From an uncultured archaeon (GTDB lineage Archaea > Asgardarchaeota > Lokiarchaeia > Sigyniarchaeales > SOKP01), in the NCBI GenBank assembly GCA_964486045.1, contig CAZALK010000002.1, positions 256,001 to 320,000 of the forward strand: 64,000 bases of DNA. Direction: 5' to 3'. Both the position numbers and the translations under genes were made by a program. The notes beneath the pieces are model-generated. The model was not told the origin of the DNA and did not search any database. It saw only the letters and a list, made by a program, of their open reading frames with translations. Shown one piece after another: positions 13,868-59,880 of this stretch (the stretch's first letter is position 1; each line of letters starts with the position of its first letter).

Positions 13868-14373
13868 TTTTCAATCAAATCATTACATTCTTTTATGAAA
13901 TTTGATAATAATATTATTTCTTGTTTGAGATTTGGTAATTCATTAATTAGTGCCTTAATATTTATCATAATTTTTTCTAAGTCTTTTAAATATTTAATTG
14001 CTTCTAATTTATCGTATTTCTCCTCTGGAGTGATTAATTTACCCTCTTTCATAATTCCATATCTAGTGGAGGGTCCTTCTCCTTCAATCCCTTTTGCTAG
14101 AGCTGCGACGTTTTTTATTTTCTCAAGAATTTCTTTTTCAATATTAATATTTTTATTAGTTTCAATGGATTCTAATATTATTGATGGATTGTGAATTTTG
14201 CGAAATTTAAATCCTAACAATAGGATTAATGCTTTTTGCAGTTGTTCTATTGATAATTGAATTTTAAAGACACACTCAGAATAGTCATTAATTTTATAAT
14301 TCCTAATTACTCTTTCTATATTTTTAAACGCTAAATCTATCCATTCCTTAGTTTTTTCGTAATTAGTGGTCAA
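13864..14373 (-). CDS. HEPN-domain protein (MNT partner)
   Basis: QLSIEQLQKA...KIH...STRYG pattern of the archaeal MNT-associated HEPN class. Confidence 0.8.
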   Translation of the reverse strand: MTTNYEKTKEWIDLAFKNIERVIRNYKINDYSECVFKIQLSIEQLQKALILLLGFKFRKIHNPSIILESIETNKNINIEKEILEKIKNVAALAKGIEGEGPSTRYGIMKEGKLITPEEKYDKLEAIKYLKDLEKIMINIKALINELPNLKQEIILLSNFIKECNDLIEK

Positions 14374-39343: not shown

Positions 39344-39740
39344 ACATTCTAAGGAAGCAAAAAGATGGTTTGATCAATCATTAGAAGATTTAAAGAGTGC
39401 TACAATTCTATTTGAAAATGAACGCTATTATCTCGTCTGTTTTATATCTCAACAAATTGTTGAAAAAGCTTTAAAATCTGTGATTTATTTTAATAAAGAA
39501 GATCTCGTTCTAGGGCATTCAGTTAAGAAATTGGCTGATTGGGCTGGTACTTTCGATAATAAGTTTGCAAAGTTGGGCGAAGATGTATCTATTTTAGATA
39601 GTTATTATATTCCAACTAGATATCCTAACGGACTACCAGAGGGGATACCTGCTGAAGTATTTAACAAAAAGTATGCTAAGGATGCCTTAGAATTAGCTGA
39701 AACTACTATTAAAATAGTAAAATCATATCTAAACTCATAA
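39327..39740 (+). CDS. HEPN-domain protein
   Basis: CFISQQIVEKALK...GHS...LDSYYIPTRYP. Confidence 0.88.
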   Translation: MSELSKHSKEAKRWFDQSLEDLKSATILFENERYYLVCFISQQIVEKALKSVIYFNKEDLVLGHSVKKLADWAGTFDNKFAKLGEDVSILDSYYIPTRYPNGLPEGIPAEVFNKKYAKDALELAETTIKIVKSYLNS

Positions 39741-40753: not shown

Positions 40754-41137
40754 ATGCATAAGGAAGAAGTAGAGCTGTTTCTTAAACGAGCTGAAAATTT
40801 TTTGGATGGAGCCCAAGAAAGATTCCAGAAAAATGATTGGGATTTAACTTGTTTTATGGCAGAACAATCAGCTCAACTTTTTGTAAAAGCGATTATTCTT
40901 GAAAAAGGTGGAGAGCTTCCAAAAACCCATTCAATTAGAAAATTATTTGGGATGCTCTATCAATTAACCAACAACGAAATATTTAAATACGATAGAAAAG
41001 CCCTAATATTTCTCGAAAGTGCATATTTGAATACTCGATATTTTAATTTCAAGTATGAAAAGGAAGATGCTGAAGAAGCTCTAAAGATAGCAGAAGAGGT
41101 AAAAGGATATGTCAAAGATGTTAGAGATGATGATTAG
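40754..41137 (+). CDS. HEPN-domain protein
   Basis: CFMAEQSAQL.VKA...PKTHS...AYLNTRY. Confidence 0.85.
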   Translation: MHKEEVELFLKRAENFLDGAQERFQKNDWDLTCFMAEQSAQLFVKAIILEKGGELPKTHSIRKLFGMLYQLTNNEIFKYDRKALIFLESAYLNTRYFNFKYEKEDAEEALKIAEEVKGYVKDVRDDD

Positions 41138-52283: not shown

Positions 52284-54218
52284 GTGAAAAACATGAGTAA
52301 AACTAAGGAAATACCAGTTCCTGATGAAGTTAAAGGATTTACGCAAGTAAGACTTGATGTGGATCTCACTAATGGAAAAATTGGAAAAACTAAACTATCT
52401 AATGAATTCTGTCGCGACTGGATTGGGGGATATGGATTCGGTGCTAAAGTACTTTGGGATGAATGTCCAGCTGGAGTTGACCCCTTAAGCCCAGAAAATG
52501 TATTTGTGTACGCACAAGGTCCATTTCCGGGAACCATCCTTCCTACAAGTTCTAAATATGGTGTATTTGCGAAATCTCCGTTAACTGGTATGTTTGGGAT
52601 GGCAATCTCTTCTGGATCTGTCGGTGCTCAAGCTCGACGCGCTGGAATCAATATGATTGTGATTAAAGGAAAAGCTCCAGAACCTGTTTACTTGGTTGTC
52701 GACGACGATGATTATTATCTCGTTCCTTGTAAAGATAGTGTTTGGGGAAAAGGTTGTTGGGAGACGGAAGAACTTTTAAGAGAAGAATTTCAAGATCAAC
52801 GACTAGGAATAATGACTATAGGGCCAGGAGGAGAACGTGGTGGGTTTATGGGATGTATCACTAATGATCGCAATAGACAGGCTGGAAGAACTGGAATGGG
52901 TGCCGTAATGGGATCCAAAAACCTTAAAGCAATATGTTTTAGAGGTACTAAAGGTATTAGTGTTGCTCATCCTGTTGAGTTCTTCAAACTTGCTAAAAAA
53001 CTAATAAAAGTCGCAAATGGTCCTGCTACAGCAAAATATCGTGATTTAGGCACTCCTGCAGGCATTACAAGTTATAATAAGTTAGGGATGATGCCAATAT
53101 TTAATCATCGTGAAGGTACCTGGGATAAGATTGATGATGGAACTTTTACAGGTGATATACTTAATCAAGACTGGGTAGTTAAAAAGGTTGCTTGTTCACA
53201 ATGCTCGATAGGCTGTGATCACATTACTAAGGTACCAAAAGACCATCCGAATTGGCCTAATCTCTATTCAAGTATTGATCAAGAATTATGTTATAGCTTT
53301 GGAACTGCATGCGGTAATTATGATTGGCCAAGTGTTTTCAAATGTGTCTCACTTGCTGATGATTTGGGTATTGATGCTATAAGTGGAGGGGCCACAGCTG
53401 CCATGGCTTGTGAGTGCTTCGAGGAAGGTATTATCACTAAGAAAGATTTAGGATATGAACTACCTTTTGGCTCTACTATCAATCTAGTAAGATTTACTGA
53501 GGAAATGGCTCTAGGTAAAGGCTTTGCGGGTAAGATTTTTGGAGATGGAACAAGAGTAGCAGGAAAACGATTAGAAGAAATGGGTAGAAAAAATGCAAGC
53601 TATTATGCCATGCATGTAAAAGGTTTAGAAATACCTGCTTTTGATGTACATGGAATGAGTTCATTCGCAGTTGGAATGAGCGTTTCTATTCGTGGTGCAT
53701 GCCACTTGCGTAATGGTTCTTACGGTCTTGATGCTAAAGGTAAATTTGACAGATTTGGTTACGATAAACCAGTTGAAAGAGGGGAAGCAATAAAAGTATT
53801 AGAAGATATCTATGGGATAATTGATTCTTATATCGTTTGCAAATTTACTCGGGGAATTTACGAAAATGATGCTGAAATGGCTAAAGTTTTCGAACTTGTT
53901 ACTGGAATCCCTGTAACTGAGAAATTCATACAACATCGAGGAGAAGCGATAGTAAACCTTTCAAAATGCTTTAATATTCGAGAAGGATGGAAACGAGAAG
54001 ACGATCATCCTCCAGAAAGATTTTTCAAGCAACCTCATACAAGAGGTCCTGCAAAAGGCGTTGTTTTGAAGGAAGATGGATATCAAGAGGTGCTAAGTGG
54101 TTATTTTGAAGCTCGTGGATGGGATACTAAAACAGGAATTCCAACTGATGAGAAGTTAAAATCGCTTGGATTAGACTTTGTTGTTGGTAAATTACAACCT
54201 GCTGGAGGGAAGAAATAA
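52284..54218 (+). CDS. aor: Aldehyde:ferredoxin oxidoreductase family protein
   Basis: KSPLTG, AGRTGMGAVMGSKNLKA, CSQCSIGC, GIDAIS, KGLE and RGACH motifs. Confidence 0.92.
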   Translation: MKNMSKTKEIPVPDEVKGFTQVRLDVDLTNGKIGKTKLSNEFCRDWIGGYGFGAKVLWDECPAGVDPLSPENVFVYAQGPFPGTILPTSSKYGVFAKSPLTGMFGMAISSGSVGAQARRAGINMIVIKGKAPEPVYLVVDDDDYYLVPCKDSVWGKGCWETEELLREEFQDQRLGIMTIGPGGERGGFMGCITNDRNRQAGRTGMGAVMGSKNLKAICFRGTKGISVAHPVEFFKLAKKLIKVANGPATAKYRDLGTPAGITSYNKLGMMPIFNHREGTWDKIDDGTFTGDILNQDWVVKKVACSQCSIGCDHITKVPKDHPNWPNLYSSIDQELCYSFGTACGNYDWPSVFKCVSLADDLGIDAISGGATAAMACECFEEGIITKKDLGYELPFGSTINLVRFTEEMALGKGFAGKIFGDGTRVAGKRLEEMGRKNASYYAMHVKGLEIPAFDVHGMSSFAVGMSVSIRGACHLRNGSYGLDAKGKFDRFGYDKPVERGEAIKVLEDIYGIIDSYIVCKFTRGIYENDAEMAKVFELVTGIPVTEKFIQHRGEAIVNLSKCFNIREGWKREDDHPPERFFKQPHTRGPAKGVVLKEDGYQEVLSGYFEARGWDTKTGIPTDEKLKSLGLDFVVGKLQPAGGKK

Positions 54219-54221
54219 GAA

Positions 54222-54776
54222 ATGTCAAAAACTACCAAAAAGAGAGGCGGAGTTATTCATCAGTTTATTATTGTTGACCCTAATTTATGCAGTGGATGCG
54301 AAACATGCGAATCTGTATGCTCTTTTGTGCATGACGGAGAATTTAATCCAATAAATACAAGAATTCACAGAGTAAGAATTGAACCAGTTTTAAATGTCGC
54401 ATTAGCGTGTCAGAAGTGTGATGATGCGCCATGCGTTCGTAGTTGTCCTGAAAAGGCTTTGGAACAAGATAAAGAAACAGGTTCTATTATTGTAGATGAT
54501 GATAAGTGTAACGGATGTGCTTTTTGTATTCGTGCGTGCGACTTTGGCGTTCTCAACTTACATATACAATCTCAAAAGGCGCTTATTTGTGATCTATGCA
54601 TTACCATGAGAGATGACTATATCAATCCTGAAAGAGGAGAAAAATATCCCGCATGCATTGATCTCTGTCCAAAAGAAGCGATTTCATTGAAAGACGTAGA
54701 ACAAATCGGTGAAGAGAAGCGGATCGATGCTGTCAAACGGCTTTTTGGTGAAATTCTTTCAGAATCCGAAGGATAA
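54222..54776 (+). CDS. Polyferredoxin subunit (4Fe-4S dicluster, DmsB/CooF-like) of the AOR
   Basis: CSGCETCESVC, CQKCDDAPCVRSCP, CNGCAFCIRAC and CDLC...CIDLCP; 3 bp after aor. Confidence 0.9.
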   Translation: MSKTTKKRGGVIHQFIIVDPNLCSGCETCESVCSFVHDGEFNPINTRIHRVRIEPVLNVALACQKCDDAPCVRSCPEKALEQDKETGSIIVDDDKCNGCAFCIRACDFGVLNLHIQSQKALICDLCITMRDDYINPERGEKYPACIDLCPKEAISLKDVEQIGEEKRIDAVKRLFGEILSESEG

Positions 54777-54801
54777 ATCTTACTTTTTTTTATATTCTTT
54801 T
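54722..54801 (+). repeat. 80-bp perfect direct repeat, left copy (3' end of ferredoxin gene + T-tract)
   Basis: Identical to 58101-58180 by base-by-base comparison. Confidence 0.95.
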
Positions 54802-55568
54802 TTTTCTAACTCTTTAATTAATTTTACTATCTTTTTTTCTCCATTAATGCTTAGATAGCATACTCCACTTTTACGGTAGATTAACCTTTTATTCTCCAAG
54901 TTATAAAGTGAGGTTGTTATATTTGCTTTTGAATGAAGTTTAATCATCTCTTTTATTTTATCGATCTCACATCTTCTATCTACGGAAAAGTATAATAAAC
55001 TTAATATTTCATTAGCAGCAGATAGAGAGGCTAATACCAAAATGTCGCCTTCAAATCTCTGAATATGCGGTGTTGGAATTTCAATAATTTCATCAATCAG
55101 TGAATTACTATCCACTAAGCTCATATTTGAATAAATACGGATCATTTCAGCTAAGGACCACTTGGATATACTTATTACATAATAGGCATCAATCTTATTA
55201 GATATAAAATCATTTGAATGTGCACCATCACGAGAATTTCGAAACTTATAAGCAATTTTAAGTGAATCAGCGACAAGTGATTTTACGGATGGTTGAATTT
55301 TTTGAAGTGTTATTGCAGTTTTAAGTCTTTTTCTAATTTTCGTAAGATTTGGTTTAGAAGCGATGCTTTGCCTAGCAGCAAAGTCTAAAACTTGGTAAAA
55401 ATCTTCAATAAATTTGCCACATTTTACAAGAACTATTTCGTAATTATTTAAAAGAAATTCAGAGACCATTTCTTCATATTTATCTACTAACTTATCTACT
55501 TGGTTGATGTTAGCAACAGATTTTAAAATTTTGTTTATTTGTCCTTTTTTTTCCTTTGCAGAAATCAT
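54780..55568 (-). CDS. HEPN-like putative RNase (RNSRDGAH) with C-terminal winged helix
   Basis: R-x6-H in YKFRNSRDGAH within an all-helical domain; C-terminal NITTSLYNLENKRLI...YLSINGEK. Stop codon lies inside the direct repeat. Confidence 0.6.
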   Translation of the reverse strand: MISAKEKKGQINKILKSVANINQVDKLVDKYEEMVSEFLLNNYEIVLVKCGKFIEDFYQVLDFAARQSIASKPNLTKIRKRLKTAITLQKIQPSVKSLVADSLKIAYKFRNSRDGAHSNDFISNKIDAYYVISISKWSLAEMIRIYSNMSLVDSNSLIDEIIEIPTPHIQRFEGDILVLASLSAANEILSLLYFSVDRRCEIDKIKEMIKLHSKANITTSLYNLENKRLIYRKSGVCYLSINGEKKIVKLIKELEKKEYKKK

Positions 55569-55571
55569 TTC

Positions 55572-56054
55572 TTATAGTTGTCCTTTCTTTTTAATTAGTT
55601 CTTCAGCATTTAGGATCCCAGTTTTTGTGATCTCGAACCCTTTTTTATTATCAATTTCAGAAGAGCTTCTTAGTAATCCTCTTCTTATAAGGTTATTCAA
55701 TGTATCTGACATATTTTTAGGTTTAACTGCTCTTGTTTTATTGAATCTATCTTTAATGTGATCAACATTAAAATTTGTAATATTCTCAAATTTAAATAAG
55801 TAGTAACTTATTATTAAAGCCGTATCAGAATATGTACCAGGTCTAATTCCTGCAATTAATTCCGATAATGTTAAGGGTGTCTCTTGCTGAATTTCATTGA
55901 TAATTTTTGGTAAGTGTCTAGTATTTTGAAGTAAATAAGATAAAACAACCTTAAAAGCCTCTAATTTATATTGATTATCAATTTTATCAACAATGCTAAT
56001 TGCAAATTCGATCTTTTCTTTCAATTTTTTTTCAAGTTCATTCATATCTATCAC
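55572..56054 (-). CDS. Winged-helix protein of unknown function
   Basis: PKNMSDTLNNLIRRGLL...FEITKTG wHTH-type tail. Confidence 0.65.
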   Translation of the reverse strand: MIDMNELEKKLKEKIEFAISIVDKIDNQYKLEAFKVVLSYLLQNTRHLPKIINEIQQETPLTLSELIAGIRPGTYSDTALIISYYLFKFENITNFNVDHIKDRFNKTRAVKPKNMSDTLNNLIRRGLLRSSSEIDNKKGFEITKTGILNAEELIKKKGQL

Positions 56055-56066
56055 ATAATAATAATT

Positions 56067-56657
56067 TTAAATCTCTTCTAAGATTGTTTTTAAATAATCT
56101 GGTGCACAATATATATTGACTCTATACTCTCCACGTTCGACTCTTTTTAATTTATCTTCCTTGACTAAGTCAGATAACCTTGAGCGAACTTGTTGGATTT
56201 CTAAATTCAATTTTTCAGATATATATTCAGCTGTCACGGTATCTTCCTTTATTAGATTTTCTTCAAATAAAAGCATTTTTTCAAGAGAAGAAATATAAAT
56301 TTGTTCAACATTTTTTAAATCTTTTAATCTAATTTTATAAATCAAGTCTCCTTCCCTACTAAATTTAAAGAATTTGCTAGCTAACATTTTAGTTTTAGAA
56401 ATAAAACTAGAAAAATCTTCGAAAAGAATTGAATTTTTAATATCATCTGGATTACTAATATTTTCATTTCTTTCATTATGATCTATTACTTTTAATTTGG
56501 GTTTAGGTTCATGAAAATTATTGTTTTGTAATAATTCTCTTTTTTCATCTATGAAGTTTAAAAATTTATCTAAAAAACTAAAAAAATCACCCTCTTTAAT
56601 AGAATCTTCAACTTCTAAATTAAATCCGATATAACTAAAATTTATTTTAAAATTGAT
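56067..56657 (-). CDS. Winged-helix protein, 196 aa with probable non-canonical ATC start (track shows only the last 106 aa)
   Basis: Frame is open 90 codons upstream of ATG 56387; GAGGTG lies 8 nt before the ATC; the N-terminus is homologous to the upstream gene; C-terminal VRSRLSDLVKEDKLKRVERGEY. Confidence 0.65.
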   Translation of the reverse strand: MNFKINFSYIGFNLEVEDSIKEGDFFSFLDKFLNFIDEKRELLQNNNFHEPKPKLKVIDHNERNENISNPDDIKNSILFEDFSSFISKTKMLASKFFKFSREGDLIYKIRLKDLKNVEQIYISSLEKMLLFEENLIKEDTVTAEYISEKLNLEIQQVRSRLSDLVKEDKLKRVERGEYRVNIYCAPDYLKTILEEI

Positions 56658-56662
56658 AGTAT

Positions 56663-57286
56663 TTACACCTCAACAAGTTCGCTCAATTGCTTCAAACATT
56701 TCCTAGCTTCCAAAATCCCTTGCTGAGTAATTCTATAAGTTTTACCATCAATTTTTACAAATTTAGTATAATTTCCTCTAAACGCTTTTGATAAAGAAGT
56801 CGGATCGATGTTTGATTTTGTTAAAATCGGTGTGAGGATTTTTGAGGAAACTTTATCCTCATTATTGATTAAATTATTTTCATAAAGGAGCACTAAAATT
56901 GCTATTCGTTGTTGCTCCGTTCTTGTATCCTTTTCTATTGGTATTAAAATTGGGGGAATTTTTGTTTCAGCTCCAAAATCAAAGATCATTTGAATTTTAT
57001 CAGGTGAAATTCTTGAATCTTTTGCGAGTAGAAAAATCTCATCAGAAGTTTTATCACTTTGAATATTTATTGAATTGGTTAATTTCCCAATTCTCTTTCT
57101 ATAAATTTCATCATGTGCTAAACGAGGTATTTGTGATTCCATCTCTTTCATAGAAATAATACTTTCATTAGATGAAATGAATTCTATTATTCTCTCGAAA
57201 AACTCAAATATATCACCGTCGTACTCAAAATTTTCTACTTCAATAAGTACTCCTTTTACATTCAATTTTATCTTTATATTTGTCAA
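56663..57286 (-). CDS. Hypothetical protein with C-terminal winged-helix-like tail
   Basis: TTG start; C-terminal TYRITQQGILEA; first gene of the island operon. Confidence 0.65.
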   Translation of the reverse strand: MTNIKIKLNVKGVLIEVENFEYDGDIFEFFERIIEFISSNESIISMKEMESQIPRLAHDEIYRKRIGKLTNSINIQSDKTSDEIFLLAKDSRISPDKIQMIFDFGAETKIPPILIPIEKDTRTEQQRIAILVLLYENNLINNEDKVSSKILTPILTKSNIDPTSLSKAFRGNYTKFVKIDGKTYRITQQGILEARKCLKQLSELVEV

Positions 57287-58100
57287 AATTCTAACCTTAA
57301 TGTGTTTATCAATATTTTTAAAGAAAAATCAAATTTAAAGTTTTGTAAAAAACATTTAGATGATTTTTTTTTTGCTTCGTTTATTCTTTTAAATAGGGAA
57401 TTCGATGTCTTTTTTAATAAAATAAACAAGAGTTCATCAATTTCTACATATTCAACGGTATTATGTACATATTATATTCGGATTTATTTTATAGTGTTAA
57501 TATTAATTAGTTAATATATAGGTTGTAGATTTATGTTTAAATTCATTTATAAATAAAACCATTTTTTTTAATAAAAATACAATAGTTTTTATATATTCAA
57601 TATTCCTTTATTTGAGATTAATAAGACTGAATTATCCCTTACAATTATTTGGTTAAGTTTGCAAACAGTTTCTTAGGACAGATTTAACTATGATTTTGGT
57701 TTTTACTAGAATGAAGGGAAAGTGATAACTCGATTTATAAGAAAAAACGAATCAATATCTACTTGTGAGTAGATGTGTATTATTATCTCAAATCTATGTT
57801 ATTGCTAAATACTAACAAACATACTTTTTATTTGAAATTATCTATTCGTTTTACAGAAATTATGATGAATCAAGATTCGTATAATATTATTTTAAAATTT
57901 TTAATTGCTTTTGGTAGATAATAAAAGATCTCAAATAATTTAAAAAGGAGAAGTGGACTAGTTCTATTAAGTTTTTTCGAGTTTATCTAAAAAAACTGAA
58001 GATTAACTATTTGCTTTTTTTTGTTTGATTTTTTTATTTGAATTTTTCAGTTGATTGGGTTGAATTCTCCATCACTGACAAATAACGAACAGATTAAGCA

Positions 58101-58180
58101 GATCGATGCTGTCAAACGGCTTTTTGGTGAAATTCTTTCAGAATCCGAAGGATAAATCTTACTTTTTTTTATATTCTTTT
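58101..58180 (+). repeat. 80-bp perfect direct repeat, right copy
   Basis: Identical to 54722-54801. Confidence 0.95.
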
Positions 58181-58299
58181 ATTTTTAGTTTCTTATATGT
58201 AAATCTTGCTTAATTTAGATTCACATAGAACATTAAAAAAAGTTAATTTTATTAAGACTTACGTCGTTAATTACTTTAAAATTATCTTAGTGAAATTAT

Positions 58300-59436
58300 A
58301 TGGTTGAAATACATGGATTTTGTGATGAGCAATTTAAATCAGTTAAAGAGGCTTTTACTCAAAATTTTGAGGAAGGATTAGAAGTCGGTGCCTCTTTTGC
58401 AGCTACTTTAAACGGTAAACCTGTAATAGACATATGGGCGGGATATAGTGATGCCGCCCAAACAAAACCTTGGGAAAAGGATACCATAGTAAACGTATAT
58501 TCAACGACAAAGGTAATGACTGCAATATGTACACTCATGTGTGTTGATCGAGGATTATTAGATCTCGATGCACCTGTTGCTAAATATTGGCCAGAGTTTG
58601 CTCAAGGAGGTAAAGAGAAAATACCAGTTAGAAATCTCCTCAGCCATACTGCAGGTCTTTCTGGTTTCGATAAACCTATTTCAATAGAAACTTTGTATAA
58701 TTGGGAAAAAGTTGTAAACTTACTGGCTGCGCAAAAACCTTGGTGGGAACCCGGAACTAAAAGTGGTTATCATGCTATTACATTTGGTCATCTTTTAGGC
58801 GAACTAGTACGTCGAGTAACTGGGAAAACTATTGGAACATTTTTCAAAGAAGAAGTAGCAGATCCCCTTGGCGCAGATTTCCATATTGGTCTTCCTGAGG
58901 AACATGATTCTCGGGTTGGTGAATTAATCCCACCTCCCGAAATGGATTTGAGTCAGTTAGGAGCTGTTGATCCAAACTCTGTAGCAGTAAAGACATTTAT
59001 GAGTGTTGCAACTAGTCCTGCAGAAACTAAGACTCGTGCTTGGCGTGCTGCTGAGATTCCTGCCGCTAATGGACATGGAAATGCTCGGGCTGTGGCTAGA
59101 ATAACATCTGCAGTGGCATGTGGTGGTGAAATTGATGGAGTACGTTTATTTTCCTTAGAAACAATAGAAAAAGCTTTAGAGGAACAATCCTATGGAACGG
59201 ATTTAGTACTTATGGTGCCAATACGTTTTGGTTTAGGTCTTGGTCTCCAGGGAAAAGAAGCTCCTATAGGACCGAATCAACGTGTTTTATACTGGGGCGG
59301 ATGGGGAGGTTCTGTAAGTATAATGGATCTTGATGCTAAGTTAAGCATTGCCTATGTTATGAACAAAATGGTATCAACCTTGACAGGAGATCCTCGAAGT
59401 GTAAGACCCATTGAAGCATTATATAACTCATTGTAG
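58300..59436 (+). CDS. Serine hydrolase, class C beta-lactamase / family VIII esterase
   Basis: S-x-x-K (STTK), LLSHTAG, YHAITF and WGGWGGS motifs. Confidence 0.9.
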   Translation: MVEIHGFCDEQFKSVKEAFTQNFEEGLEVGASFAATLNGKPVIDIWAGYSDAAQTKPWEKDTIVNVYSTTKVMTAICTLMCVDRGLLDLDAPVAKYWPEFAQGGKEKIPVRNLLSHTAGLSGFDKPISIETLYNWEKVVNLLAAQKPWWEPGTKSGYHAITFGHLLGELVRRVTGKTIGTFFKEEVADPLGADFHIGLPEEHDSRVGELIPPPEMDLSQLGAVDPNSVAVKTFMSVATSPAETKTRAWRAAEIPAANGHGNARAVARITSAVACGGEIDGVRLFSLETIEKALEEQSYGTDLVLMVPIRFGLGLGLQGKEAPIGPNQRVLYWGGWGGSVSIMDLDAKLSIAYVMNKMVSTLTGDPRSVRPIEALYNSL

Positions 59437-59469
59437 TTCTTCTTTTTTTTTTTGGTAATTCGAGAATCT

Positions 59470-59519
59470 GAATCCGAAGGGTAAAAATTAATTTTTTTTA
59501 ATATCTTTTTTATTTTAGT
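59470..59519 (+). repeat. Degenerate third copy of the distal half of the island repeat
   Basis: GAATCCGAAGG exact; 27 of the first 31 bases match 58141-58171. Confidence 0.6.
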
Positions 59520-59594
59520 AATTTTTCTTTTATGAAAAGTATAATTTACTGCTCATTTTTTCTATTATCAAGAATTTCATTTTTTATTGTTCGA

Positions 59595-59880
59595 TCAAGG
59601 ATTAACTACCTCTGTCTCAGTTCCAATAACAATAAATGATCCATCTCCAGAAATAGCAAGAGCATCTGTATAAACTTGACTTCCGTGATCATAACTCCAA
59701 ACCTCTTGTACACTAGACATATGAAGGTTTTCCGTTTTTTGTTGTATATAATTGCCATTCAAAACTAAGGGAAAAATATTTATTCTCACAATTTTTTTCA
59801 AGGAAATTCAAGTTGAATAAAAAATGAGAAGAGAATGAGTCCTCCTATAGCAATTACTAATTTAATGAGAAATCCAGCAA
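59595..59880 (-). pseudogene. Remnant of a secreted beta-propeller (WD40/PQQ-like) gene
   Basis: VWSYDHGSQVYTDALAISGDGSFIVIGT resembles one propeller blade; an upstream hydrophobic stretch in another frame is stop-interrupted. Confidence 0.4.

Follow-up and report, generated by a model that had tools for sequence, protein, structure and literature searches.

The 64,000-nucleotide (nt) stretch of DNA examined here, referred to as the window, comprises positions 256,001–320,000 of the forward strand of contig CAZALK010000002.1 (assembly GCA_964486045.1) from an uncultured Lokiarchaeial archaeon of the lineage SOKP01, the 5.18-Mb genome of which is denoted G000 and has its closest matches among Promethearchaeota metagenome-assembled genomes. 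The window carries an island of approximately 3.4 kb and low GC content that is inserted at the 3′ end of a ferredoxin gene and brings with it four closely packed minus-strand genes, named g1 to g4 in operon order. The product of g4 joins a HEPN-superfamily domain to a MarR-like winged helix-turn-helix (wHTH) domain, and the other three genes encode further wHTH proteins. In our judgment there is about an even chance that this cassette is a mobile toxin or abortive-infection module of the HEPN type, kept in check by its wHTH partners.

The g4 protein and its family

The g4-type HEPN-wHTH protein is no orphan and represents a large unannotated family. A word-indexed search with g4 retrieved four relatives of 46–57% identity, and a family profile searched against 1.84 billion cluster representatives matched 693 of them at E ≤ 1e-3, including 374 at E ≤ 1e-10. 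Almost all of these proteins have approximately 250 amino acids (aa) and align over their full length. The named members are all annotated as "hypothetical". In an alignment of 74 diverse sequences that include g4 and share roughly 20–25% identity, four positions are invariant (E55, R110, H117 and D127). The first-pass annotation of the window, which was made from the nucleotide sequence alone, had pointed to an R-x6-H motif in this protein, R110-N-S-R-D-G-A-H117, and the motif is real: RNSRDGAH is invariant in the four relatives, and it is not a chance occurrence, because its R and H are retained in all 5 close and all 74 diverse sequences. The spacer between these two residues is six residues long in 71 of the 74, the residue that follows R (position 111) is polar (N in 37, S in 36 and D in one), and the helix-2 glutamate E55 is universal, with the pattern Ex3[KR] in 47 sequences and Ex3Q in g4 itself.

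The full-length AlphaFold2 (AF2) model of g4, with a predicted local distance difference test (pLDDT) score of 74, consists of an all-α N-terminal domain and a C-terminal wHTH. When the N-terminal domain was modelled by itself from nine diverse Asgard sequences, a pLDDT of 85.6 and a predicted template modelling score of 0.83 were obtained, with helices at residues 22–39, 43–66, 93–114 and 121–147 and, between helices 2 and 3, an extra helix at 75–87, which is a HEPN hallmark. The Rx6H motif is located where helix 3 ends and in the flexible, low-pLDDT loop (114–117) that precedes helix 4. Among 48,161 PDB representatives compared by VIA-align, the top six fold matches of this domain all belong to the HEPN superfamily (Z 8.7–9.9, 104–125 residues aligned), namely AF_0298 (2hsb; Z 9.9, 123 of 126 residues aligned), the LinB C-domain (Z 9.9), the sacsin HEPN domain (Z 9.1), ST0689 (1wol; Z 8.8), 3c18 (Z 8.7) and TT1696 (1ufb; Z 8.7); Csm6, LsoA, ANT C-domains, HepT and Csx1 appear at lower ranks. 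The top-probability Foldseek matches of the N-terminal domain are likewise HEPN proteins (1o3u, 0.97; 2hsb, 0.94; 1ufb, 0.91), and with the full-length model Foldseek returned wHTH matches only. The C-terminal residues 180–262 match MarR/PadR structures (Z 10–11.7, root-mean-square deviation approximately 2–3 Å), SSV1 F-93 and STIV F93 being among the structural matches, and the family profile matches the sequence of MepR (E 6e-4).

A HEPN fold of the 262-aa protein had been set beforehand as the test of its assignment as a HEPN RNase. The model, the fold matches and the motifs all show the hallmarks of HEPN domains, which are the fold, the Rx4-6H motif and an acidic residue in helix 2, typically within Ex3[KR] (Anantharaman et al., 2013; PMC3710099), and g4 very probably represents a new family within the HEPN superfamily. 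At the level of sequence, Pfam gave no family match for the g4 N-terminal domain at E ≤ 1, nor for its 74 relatives at E ≤ 0.01, HEPN-clan models included; searches of PDB sequences with a close and a broad profile found MarR-type wHTH domains only, with no similarity between the HEPN part and any PDB chain; and in the ESM Atlas the g4 N-terminal domain, like g1, matches unnamed clusters only. Because non-catalytic HEPN domains characteristically lose the Rx4-6H motif, those fused to nucleotidyltransferases being the ones that do so (PMC3710099), and the motif is kept here, g4 is probably catalytically active.

The operon, its winged-helix partners and their recurrence

The first-pass annotation had described four tightly packed genes on the minus strand at 54780–57286, in agreement with the list of open reading frames (ORFs), in which they lie head to tail, and the intergenic gaps between g1 and g2, g2 and g3, and g3 and g4 are 5, 12 and 3 nt, respectively (Table 1). 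It had also noted a winged-helix-like tail in all four proteins, which is upheld by profile comparison: with the wHTH of g4, hhalign scored 96.5% for the C-terminal domain class of g3 (g3C), 90% for that of g2 (g2C) and 74% for that of g1 (g1C), and the same three profiles scored below 4% against the g4 N-terminal domain, used as a control. Of the further proposal that g1 and g2 share an N-terminal domain, a marginal similarity survives within the window (BLASTP, 28% identity over 61 aa, E 3e-5), and none was found between the corresponding paralogues of a second genome, LW40_87; among the partner proteins of distant loci, a common N-terminal motif seems plausible on visual inspection and is significant for G055 alone (E 6e-4).

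Table 1. Coordinates of the operon and of the island in the window.
Feature	Position	Strand	Description
g1	56663–57286	−	207 aa, TTG start; N-terminal motif weakly g2-like; conserved wHTH-like C-terminal domain (g1C)
g2	56067–56657	−	196 aa from ATC 56657; strand-strand-helix-like N-terminal motif; wHTH of the g2C class, AbiEi-like in PADLOC
g3	55572–56054	−	160 aa from GTG; helical N-terminus; C-terminal wHTH of the g3C class
g4	54780–55568	−	262 aa; HEPN-superfamily N-terminal domain (~20–150); MarR-like wHTH (~180–240); terminal helix; key residues E55, R110-N-x5-H117, D127
Left direct-repeat copy (attL-like)	54717–54808		Family D1, 92 nt, 97% identical to 58096–58187
AT-rich non-coding stretch 5′ of g1	57287–58095		GC 0.21–0.24
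Right direct-repeat copy (attR-like)	58096–58187		92 nt

Searches of Pfam, NCBIfam, PHROGs and PADLOC were of little use for all four proteins. In none of these libraries is a name given to g1 or g3, and the g2 C-terminus bears a weak resemblance to winged helices of the AbiEi and TrmB types; in PADLOC, its match to AbiEi (E 1.4e-5) is isolated and weak, and g1 and g3 have none. No nucleotidyltransferase match was found among g1–g3, and the island is devoid of other ORFs.

The association of these genes is conserved. The complete cassette, g1-g2-g3-g4 in identical order and with 41–56% identity, recurs in the Promethearchaeota metagenome-assembled genome LW40_87 (G221; JAHPZE010000017.1), where both the island and its target gene differ from those of the window, and a 1.5-kb metagenome contig carries g2-g3-g4; the first-pass annotation had made its proposal depend on co-occurrence of this kind. 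For a wider view, 400 Asgard genomes were scanned with the family profile and the neighbouring genes were classed by iterated domain hidden Markov models (HMMs), the gene contexts being drawn from Asgard genomes, one further genome match and one metagenome contig. Full-length family members are present in 10 of the 400 genomes, in six families, decayed copies also exist, and the distribution of the module among Asgard genomes is patchy. At every one of the ten loci with a full-length member there is an adjacent wHTH gene of the g1C or g3C class, and a g2C-class domain is also present at six; a further eight Asgard genomes have looser versions, in which the HEPN-wHTH gene is accompanied by between one and three partners, fused in one case. 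The partners lie upstream, with gaps of 3–12 nt or overlaps, in the window, G055, G006 and G269, which fits the architecture of type II toxin–antitoxin modules, where a gene for a DNA-binding partner precedes that of the toxin; in G163 and G320, however, a partner lies downstream. The conserved core is thus a HEPN-wHTH gene with one partner of the g1C or g3C class, often joined by one of the g2C class, and because this core is smaller than the cassette of the window, the four-gene form is an elaborated, expanded variant.

Two of these loci have defence genes as neighbours. In G210, a single 456-aa protein (L036:8777-10147, −) fuses g2C with two g1C domains, and the HEPN-wHTH gene lies directly 5′ of a same-strand gene for an OLD/GajA/AriA-like nuclease with AAA_15 and TOPRIM domains (L036:5915-7903, −). 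In G176, the module is placed between type I HsdM/HsdS genes accompanied by an MNT-HEPN pair and a PLD nuclease gene (MkoC/DrmC-like). Many family members lie in loci without repeats, and the module also occurs away from recognizable elements. Outside the Asgard archaea, a tblastn search of plasmid records with g4 and three distant members found a sole annotated record, on plasmid PL131 of Natronomonas pharaonis: the hypothetical 290-aa protein WP_011324391.1 (L085:6944-7816, +; family HMM E 1.5e-41), which has the N-terminal domain of the g4 family with the motif RNNRDSVH and a different, acidic C-terminal half. The g4 family thus extends to haloarchaeal plasmids.

The start codons of two genes of the window deserve comment. 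The longest canonical ORF of g2 begins at ATG 56387 and encodes 106 aa, and the 90 codons 5′ of this ATG are open and contain no ATG, GTG or TTG. Because the LW40_87 homologue has an N-terminus to which these codons can be aligned, beginning with TTG where the window has ATC 56657, the alignment indicates that the 196-aa reading is the right one, and either rare ATC initiation or a (recent) start-codon mutation may account for the window gene. The sequence GAGGTG sits 8 nt 5′ of this ATC (window 56655–56671). For g3, ATG 56045 (157 aa, as in the database entry) is probably the start, in preference to the GTG.

The island and how the cassette moves

The four genes had been taken for the only cargo of a repeat-bounded island, and they are its sole gene cargo, the remaining content being 809 nt of AT-rich non-coding DNA, which presumably holds the predicted promoter of the operon. 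The GC content is 0.21–0.31 within the island vs 0.37–0.42 in the flanks. The AOR–ferredoxin region is 81–84% identical in eleven genomes of the same genus, and homology ends 30–45 nt past the ferredoxin stop codon. In one relative, G230, the site is empty: directly after the ferredoxin gene comes what remains of an esterase gene, which the window has on the far side of the island. The left repeat consists of the last 60 nt of the ferredoxin gene (54222–54776, +) and 32 nt downstream of it, and overlaps the final 10 codons of g4. By analogy with LW40_87, the right copy would be the ferredoxin gene's own, displaced 3′ end.

The Rfam scan of 54000–59600 gave no match, and the 809-nt spacer has no notable tandem repeat or repeat array and is poorly conserved relative to the LW40_87 island; an RNA antitoxin or retron noncoding RNA in the spacer was rejected on these grounds. 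No recombinase was found among the genes of the window island.

The island of LW40_87 reveals more of the mode of insertion. It is 5.65 kb long and lies at the 3′ end of a different gene, a partial duplicate of which, 560 nt long and 69% identical, flanks the island (L004:7202-7762 vs L004:12849-14279). At the protein level, the distal fragment is 89–94% identical to the orthologues of close relatives, vs 75–77% for the 3′ end of the intact gene, so that the distal fragment appears to be the original 3′ end of the host gene; because of this pattern, the element probably brings its own copy of the 3′ end of its target, by which the native one is displaced, as is usual for integrative elements. 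A gene for a 624-aa protein (L004:10949-12823, +) is situated between g4 and the target gene. At the same site in G219, an island without the cassette contains an 874-aa full-length version of this protein (L096:2459-5083, −) and a 201-aa gene, and in both genomes the 624/874-aa gene adjoins the island junction. The 874-aa form has an N-terminal, Zn-ribbon-like CxxC..C..HH arrangement; the protein has no Pfam or PADLOC match and belongs to no recognizable family, and approximately 21 homologues of 60–87% identity occur in Loki-type metagenomes. To judge from this comparison, the cassette would be cargo and the 624/874-aa protein is a candidate for an unrecognized integrase or mobility protein. 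The window island resembles that of LW40_87 in topology and lacks the 624/874-aa gene, of which G000 holds only C-terminal fragments (C13:51491-51817 and C1:32263-32433).

The end of g4, KKEYKKK and the stop codon (54780–54808), is encoded inside the att-like repeat and is absent from all close homologues. The C-terminus of g4 thus seems to have been remodelled by the junction, and because KKEYKKK lies inside the repeat and is absent from relatives, a deletion may have joined g4 to the att region, with the loss of the DNA between them, perhaps including a mobility gene. At the right end of the island, approximately 25 nt (58071–58095) extend the diverged copy of the ferredoxin 3′ end, the plus strand reading EQI..K; the codons GAA CAG ATT (EQI) continue this diverged end with a 9-nt gap. 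The minus strand at 58050–58073 encodes DGEFNPIN, which is identical to an internal ferredoxin peptide.

Beyond the island, a third and decayed copy of the repeat (its distal half, 85% identical over 34 nt) is found at 59467–59500, 31 nt past the gene of the esterase/beta-lactamase family (58300–59436). To judge from this copy, the esterase gene may itself have been inserted at this site at an earlier time. The esterase gene of G230 adjoins the ferredoxin gene and has a large internal deletion. Elsewhere in the window there are three classical PF05168 HEPN genes in MNT-HEPN-type modules (39357–39725, +; 40769–41119, +; 13966–14349, −), and the stretch is in this respect rich in HEPN toxin modules.

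Possible function and comparison with known systems

If the cassette is a toxin or abortive-infection module, the island would be the cargo part of a Lokiarchaeial integrative element that entered at the ferredoxin 3′ end and has lost its own recombinase, and the four genes would form a single operon encoding a conflict module of the toxin–antitoxin or abortive-infection kind. HEPN enzymes are usually dimers with a composite Rx4-6H site. The effector would be g4, acting as a metal-independent HEPN RNase, and g1, g2 and g3 would bind g4, the operon DNA or both, by which the RNase would be silenced and the operon autoregulated. The three wHTH proteins may sense or restrain the RNase in one complex, as the first-pass annotation suggested. 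Loss of the element, invading nucleic acid, or the titration or degradation of a partner could each serve as a trigger that releases g4, with cleavage of RNA and growth arrest as the consequence; g4 would then be toxic by itself and neutralized by its partners, and the module would act in defence or addiction.

No catalogued system matches the cassette, as the first-pass annotation supposed: the family is covered by neither Pfam, NCBIfam and PHROGs nor PADLOC, and with PADLOC-DB v2.0.0 only isolated weak matches to single components were obtained at the locus, the family-wide scan being empty. A PADLOC match of g4 to "CARF3--CARF" (E 3.5e-6) was dropped, as none of the other 73 family members has it. 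The closest relatives in fold are proteins of the HEPN-MNT (HepT/MntA; PF05168) family, structures of which are the best fold matches of g4 (2hsb, 1wol, 1ufb, 1o3u and 7ae2). Unlike the HEPN of that system, g4 has neither a nucleotidyltransferase partner nor a PF05168 match, its R-to-H spacer is six residues rather than four, and it carries a fused MarR-like wHTH and is accompanied by wHTH partners. Csx1 and Csm6 (CARF-HTH-HEPN) resemble g4 in that HEPN and wHTH are joined in one polypeptide, and their fold is matched at Z 6.9–8.3; however, g4 has no CARF domain and no CRISPR-Cas neighbour, and the order of its domains is reversed, with HEPN preceding the wHTH. The winged helix of AbiEi resembles the g2 C-terminus, but no AbiEii nucleotidyltransferase is found at the locus, and AbiV, a HEPN RNase toxin of abortive infection, is checked by a co-encoded RNA antitoxin, whereas the island yielded no RNA that is conserved or structured. 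Past generic wHTH similarity, neither AbiE nor AbiV has a sequence match to g1–g4. What is new is the architecture in which HEPN is followed by a MarR-type wHTH, together with the recurrent wHTH partners; HEPN-based conflict modules as a kind are known.

The best mechanistic precedent for the restraint of a HEPN RNase by a wHTH partner is, by analogy, the type IX retron (Retron-Kva2), in which a winged-helix protein binds DNA and is wrapped around the HEPN subunit, the active site of which it keeps covered until a phage trigger, with abortive infection as the outcome (bioRxiv 10.64898/2026.07.14.738597). As in that system, the HEPN protein of the cassette has a winged-helix companion encoded by a gene of its own. 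Both a reverse transcriptase and msr/msd noncoding RNA are required by the retron, however, whereas no reverse transcriptase ORF lies in or beside the island and no Rfam match was obtained, and the retron HEPN lacks the canonical Rx4-6H that is invariant in the g4 family. A bolder and more tentative form of the same idea, which we regard as possible and clearly less probable than its general form, is that the module constitutes a new type of self-contained, mostly archaeal immune system, in which g1–g3 and the wHTH of g4 would survey nucleic acid and hold the HEPN RNase inactive until invader DNA or the loss of a partner leads to abortive infection. Such a system would parallel the HEPN-winged-helix pair of the retron while needing neither reverse transcriptase nor msDNA.

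Several observations weigh against a toxin or abortive-infection module. Winged-helix proteins are the commonest regulators of archaeal plasmids and viruses, and the partners could be mere regulators of the element. The island of the window is surrounded by housekeeping genes and not by a defence island, and g2 is without a canonical start codon, so that this copy of the cassette may be decaying. A search of IMG/VR with the close profile and a tblastn search of phage records with g4 both came back without a family member. The assignment of the fold is subject to reservations of its own: the Foldseek E-values for the N-terminal domain exceed 0.1, Z scores of 9–10 fall in the range where helical bundles may match through arrangement alone, and comparison by hhalign with 23 PF05168 domains from related genomes gave a probability of 11% that covers helices 1 and 2 only.

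Alternatively, the four genes could be ordinary maintenance or regulatory genes, such as transcription regulators, copy-control proteins or partition adaptors, of a small integrated plasmid or virus remnant, the HEPN-like domain being structural or ligand-binding. The cassette does travel on integrative islands, the g4 C-terminus matches the structures of two viral proteins (SSV1 F-93 and STIV F93) among others, and no defence gene adjoins the cassette in the window. This explanation is nevertheless unlikely, given that E, R and H are invariant in the 74 sequences, whereas non-catalytic HEPN domains lose Rx4-6H (PMC3710099). The module is also found away from recognizable elements and beside restriction–modification and OLD genes, and no replication, partition or capsid gene is present at any examined locus.

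Somewhat more doubtful still is the possibility that g4 is a one-component transcription factor, in which a HEPN-like nucleotide or ligand sensor controls the MarR-type wHTH, with g1–g3 as co-regulators of element or host genes. A MarR-like wHTH with a terminal helix is the architecture of a dimeric repressor, and the HEPN domains of nucleotidyltransferases bind nucleotides, the fold matches including the C-domains of LinB and ANT; yet the nucleotidyltransferase-fused HEPN domains are precisely those that lose Rx4-6H (PMC3710099), and three extra wHTH genes, a domain fusion and defence-gene neighbours are left unexplained. Lastly, it is very improbable that the cassette is the recombination or mobilization machinery of the island, with an att site recognized by the wHTH proteins and with g4 in the role of an unconventional nuclease or recombinase, which would explain an island with repeats and an empty site and no recognizable integrase, for the conserved att-adjacent gene of the LW40_87 island encodes a different, 624-aa protein, the sister island in G219 has the 874-aa protein and lacks the cassette (a comparison on which the cassette was rejected as the island's own recombinase), many family members lie in loci without repeats, and HEPN chemistry acts on RNA.

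A HEPN family that had so far gone unannotated, with approximately 700 sequence clusters, has thus been defined in Asgard archaea and at least one haloarchaeal plasmid, with fixed candidate catalytic residues and recurrent winged-helix partner genes. The movement of cargo among Lokiarchaeia is also documented, in that small islands appear to take the place of a protein-coding gene's 3′ end, the native end being left behind as a fragment. Should the cassette prove to be a mere element regulator, it would still add a new HEPN-wHTH domain architecture. To our knowledge, few Asgard defence systems have been recognized beyond restriction–modification, CRISPR, viperins and Argonautes, and the cassette, small (3 kb) and amenable to work in a heterologous host, is a concrete candidate for a new module of the toxin or abortive-infection kind.

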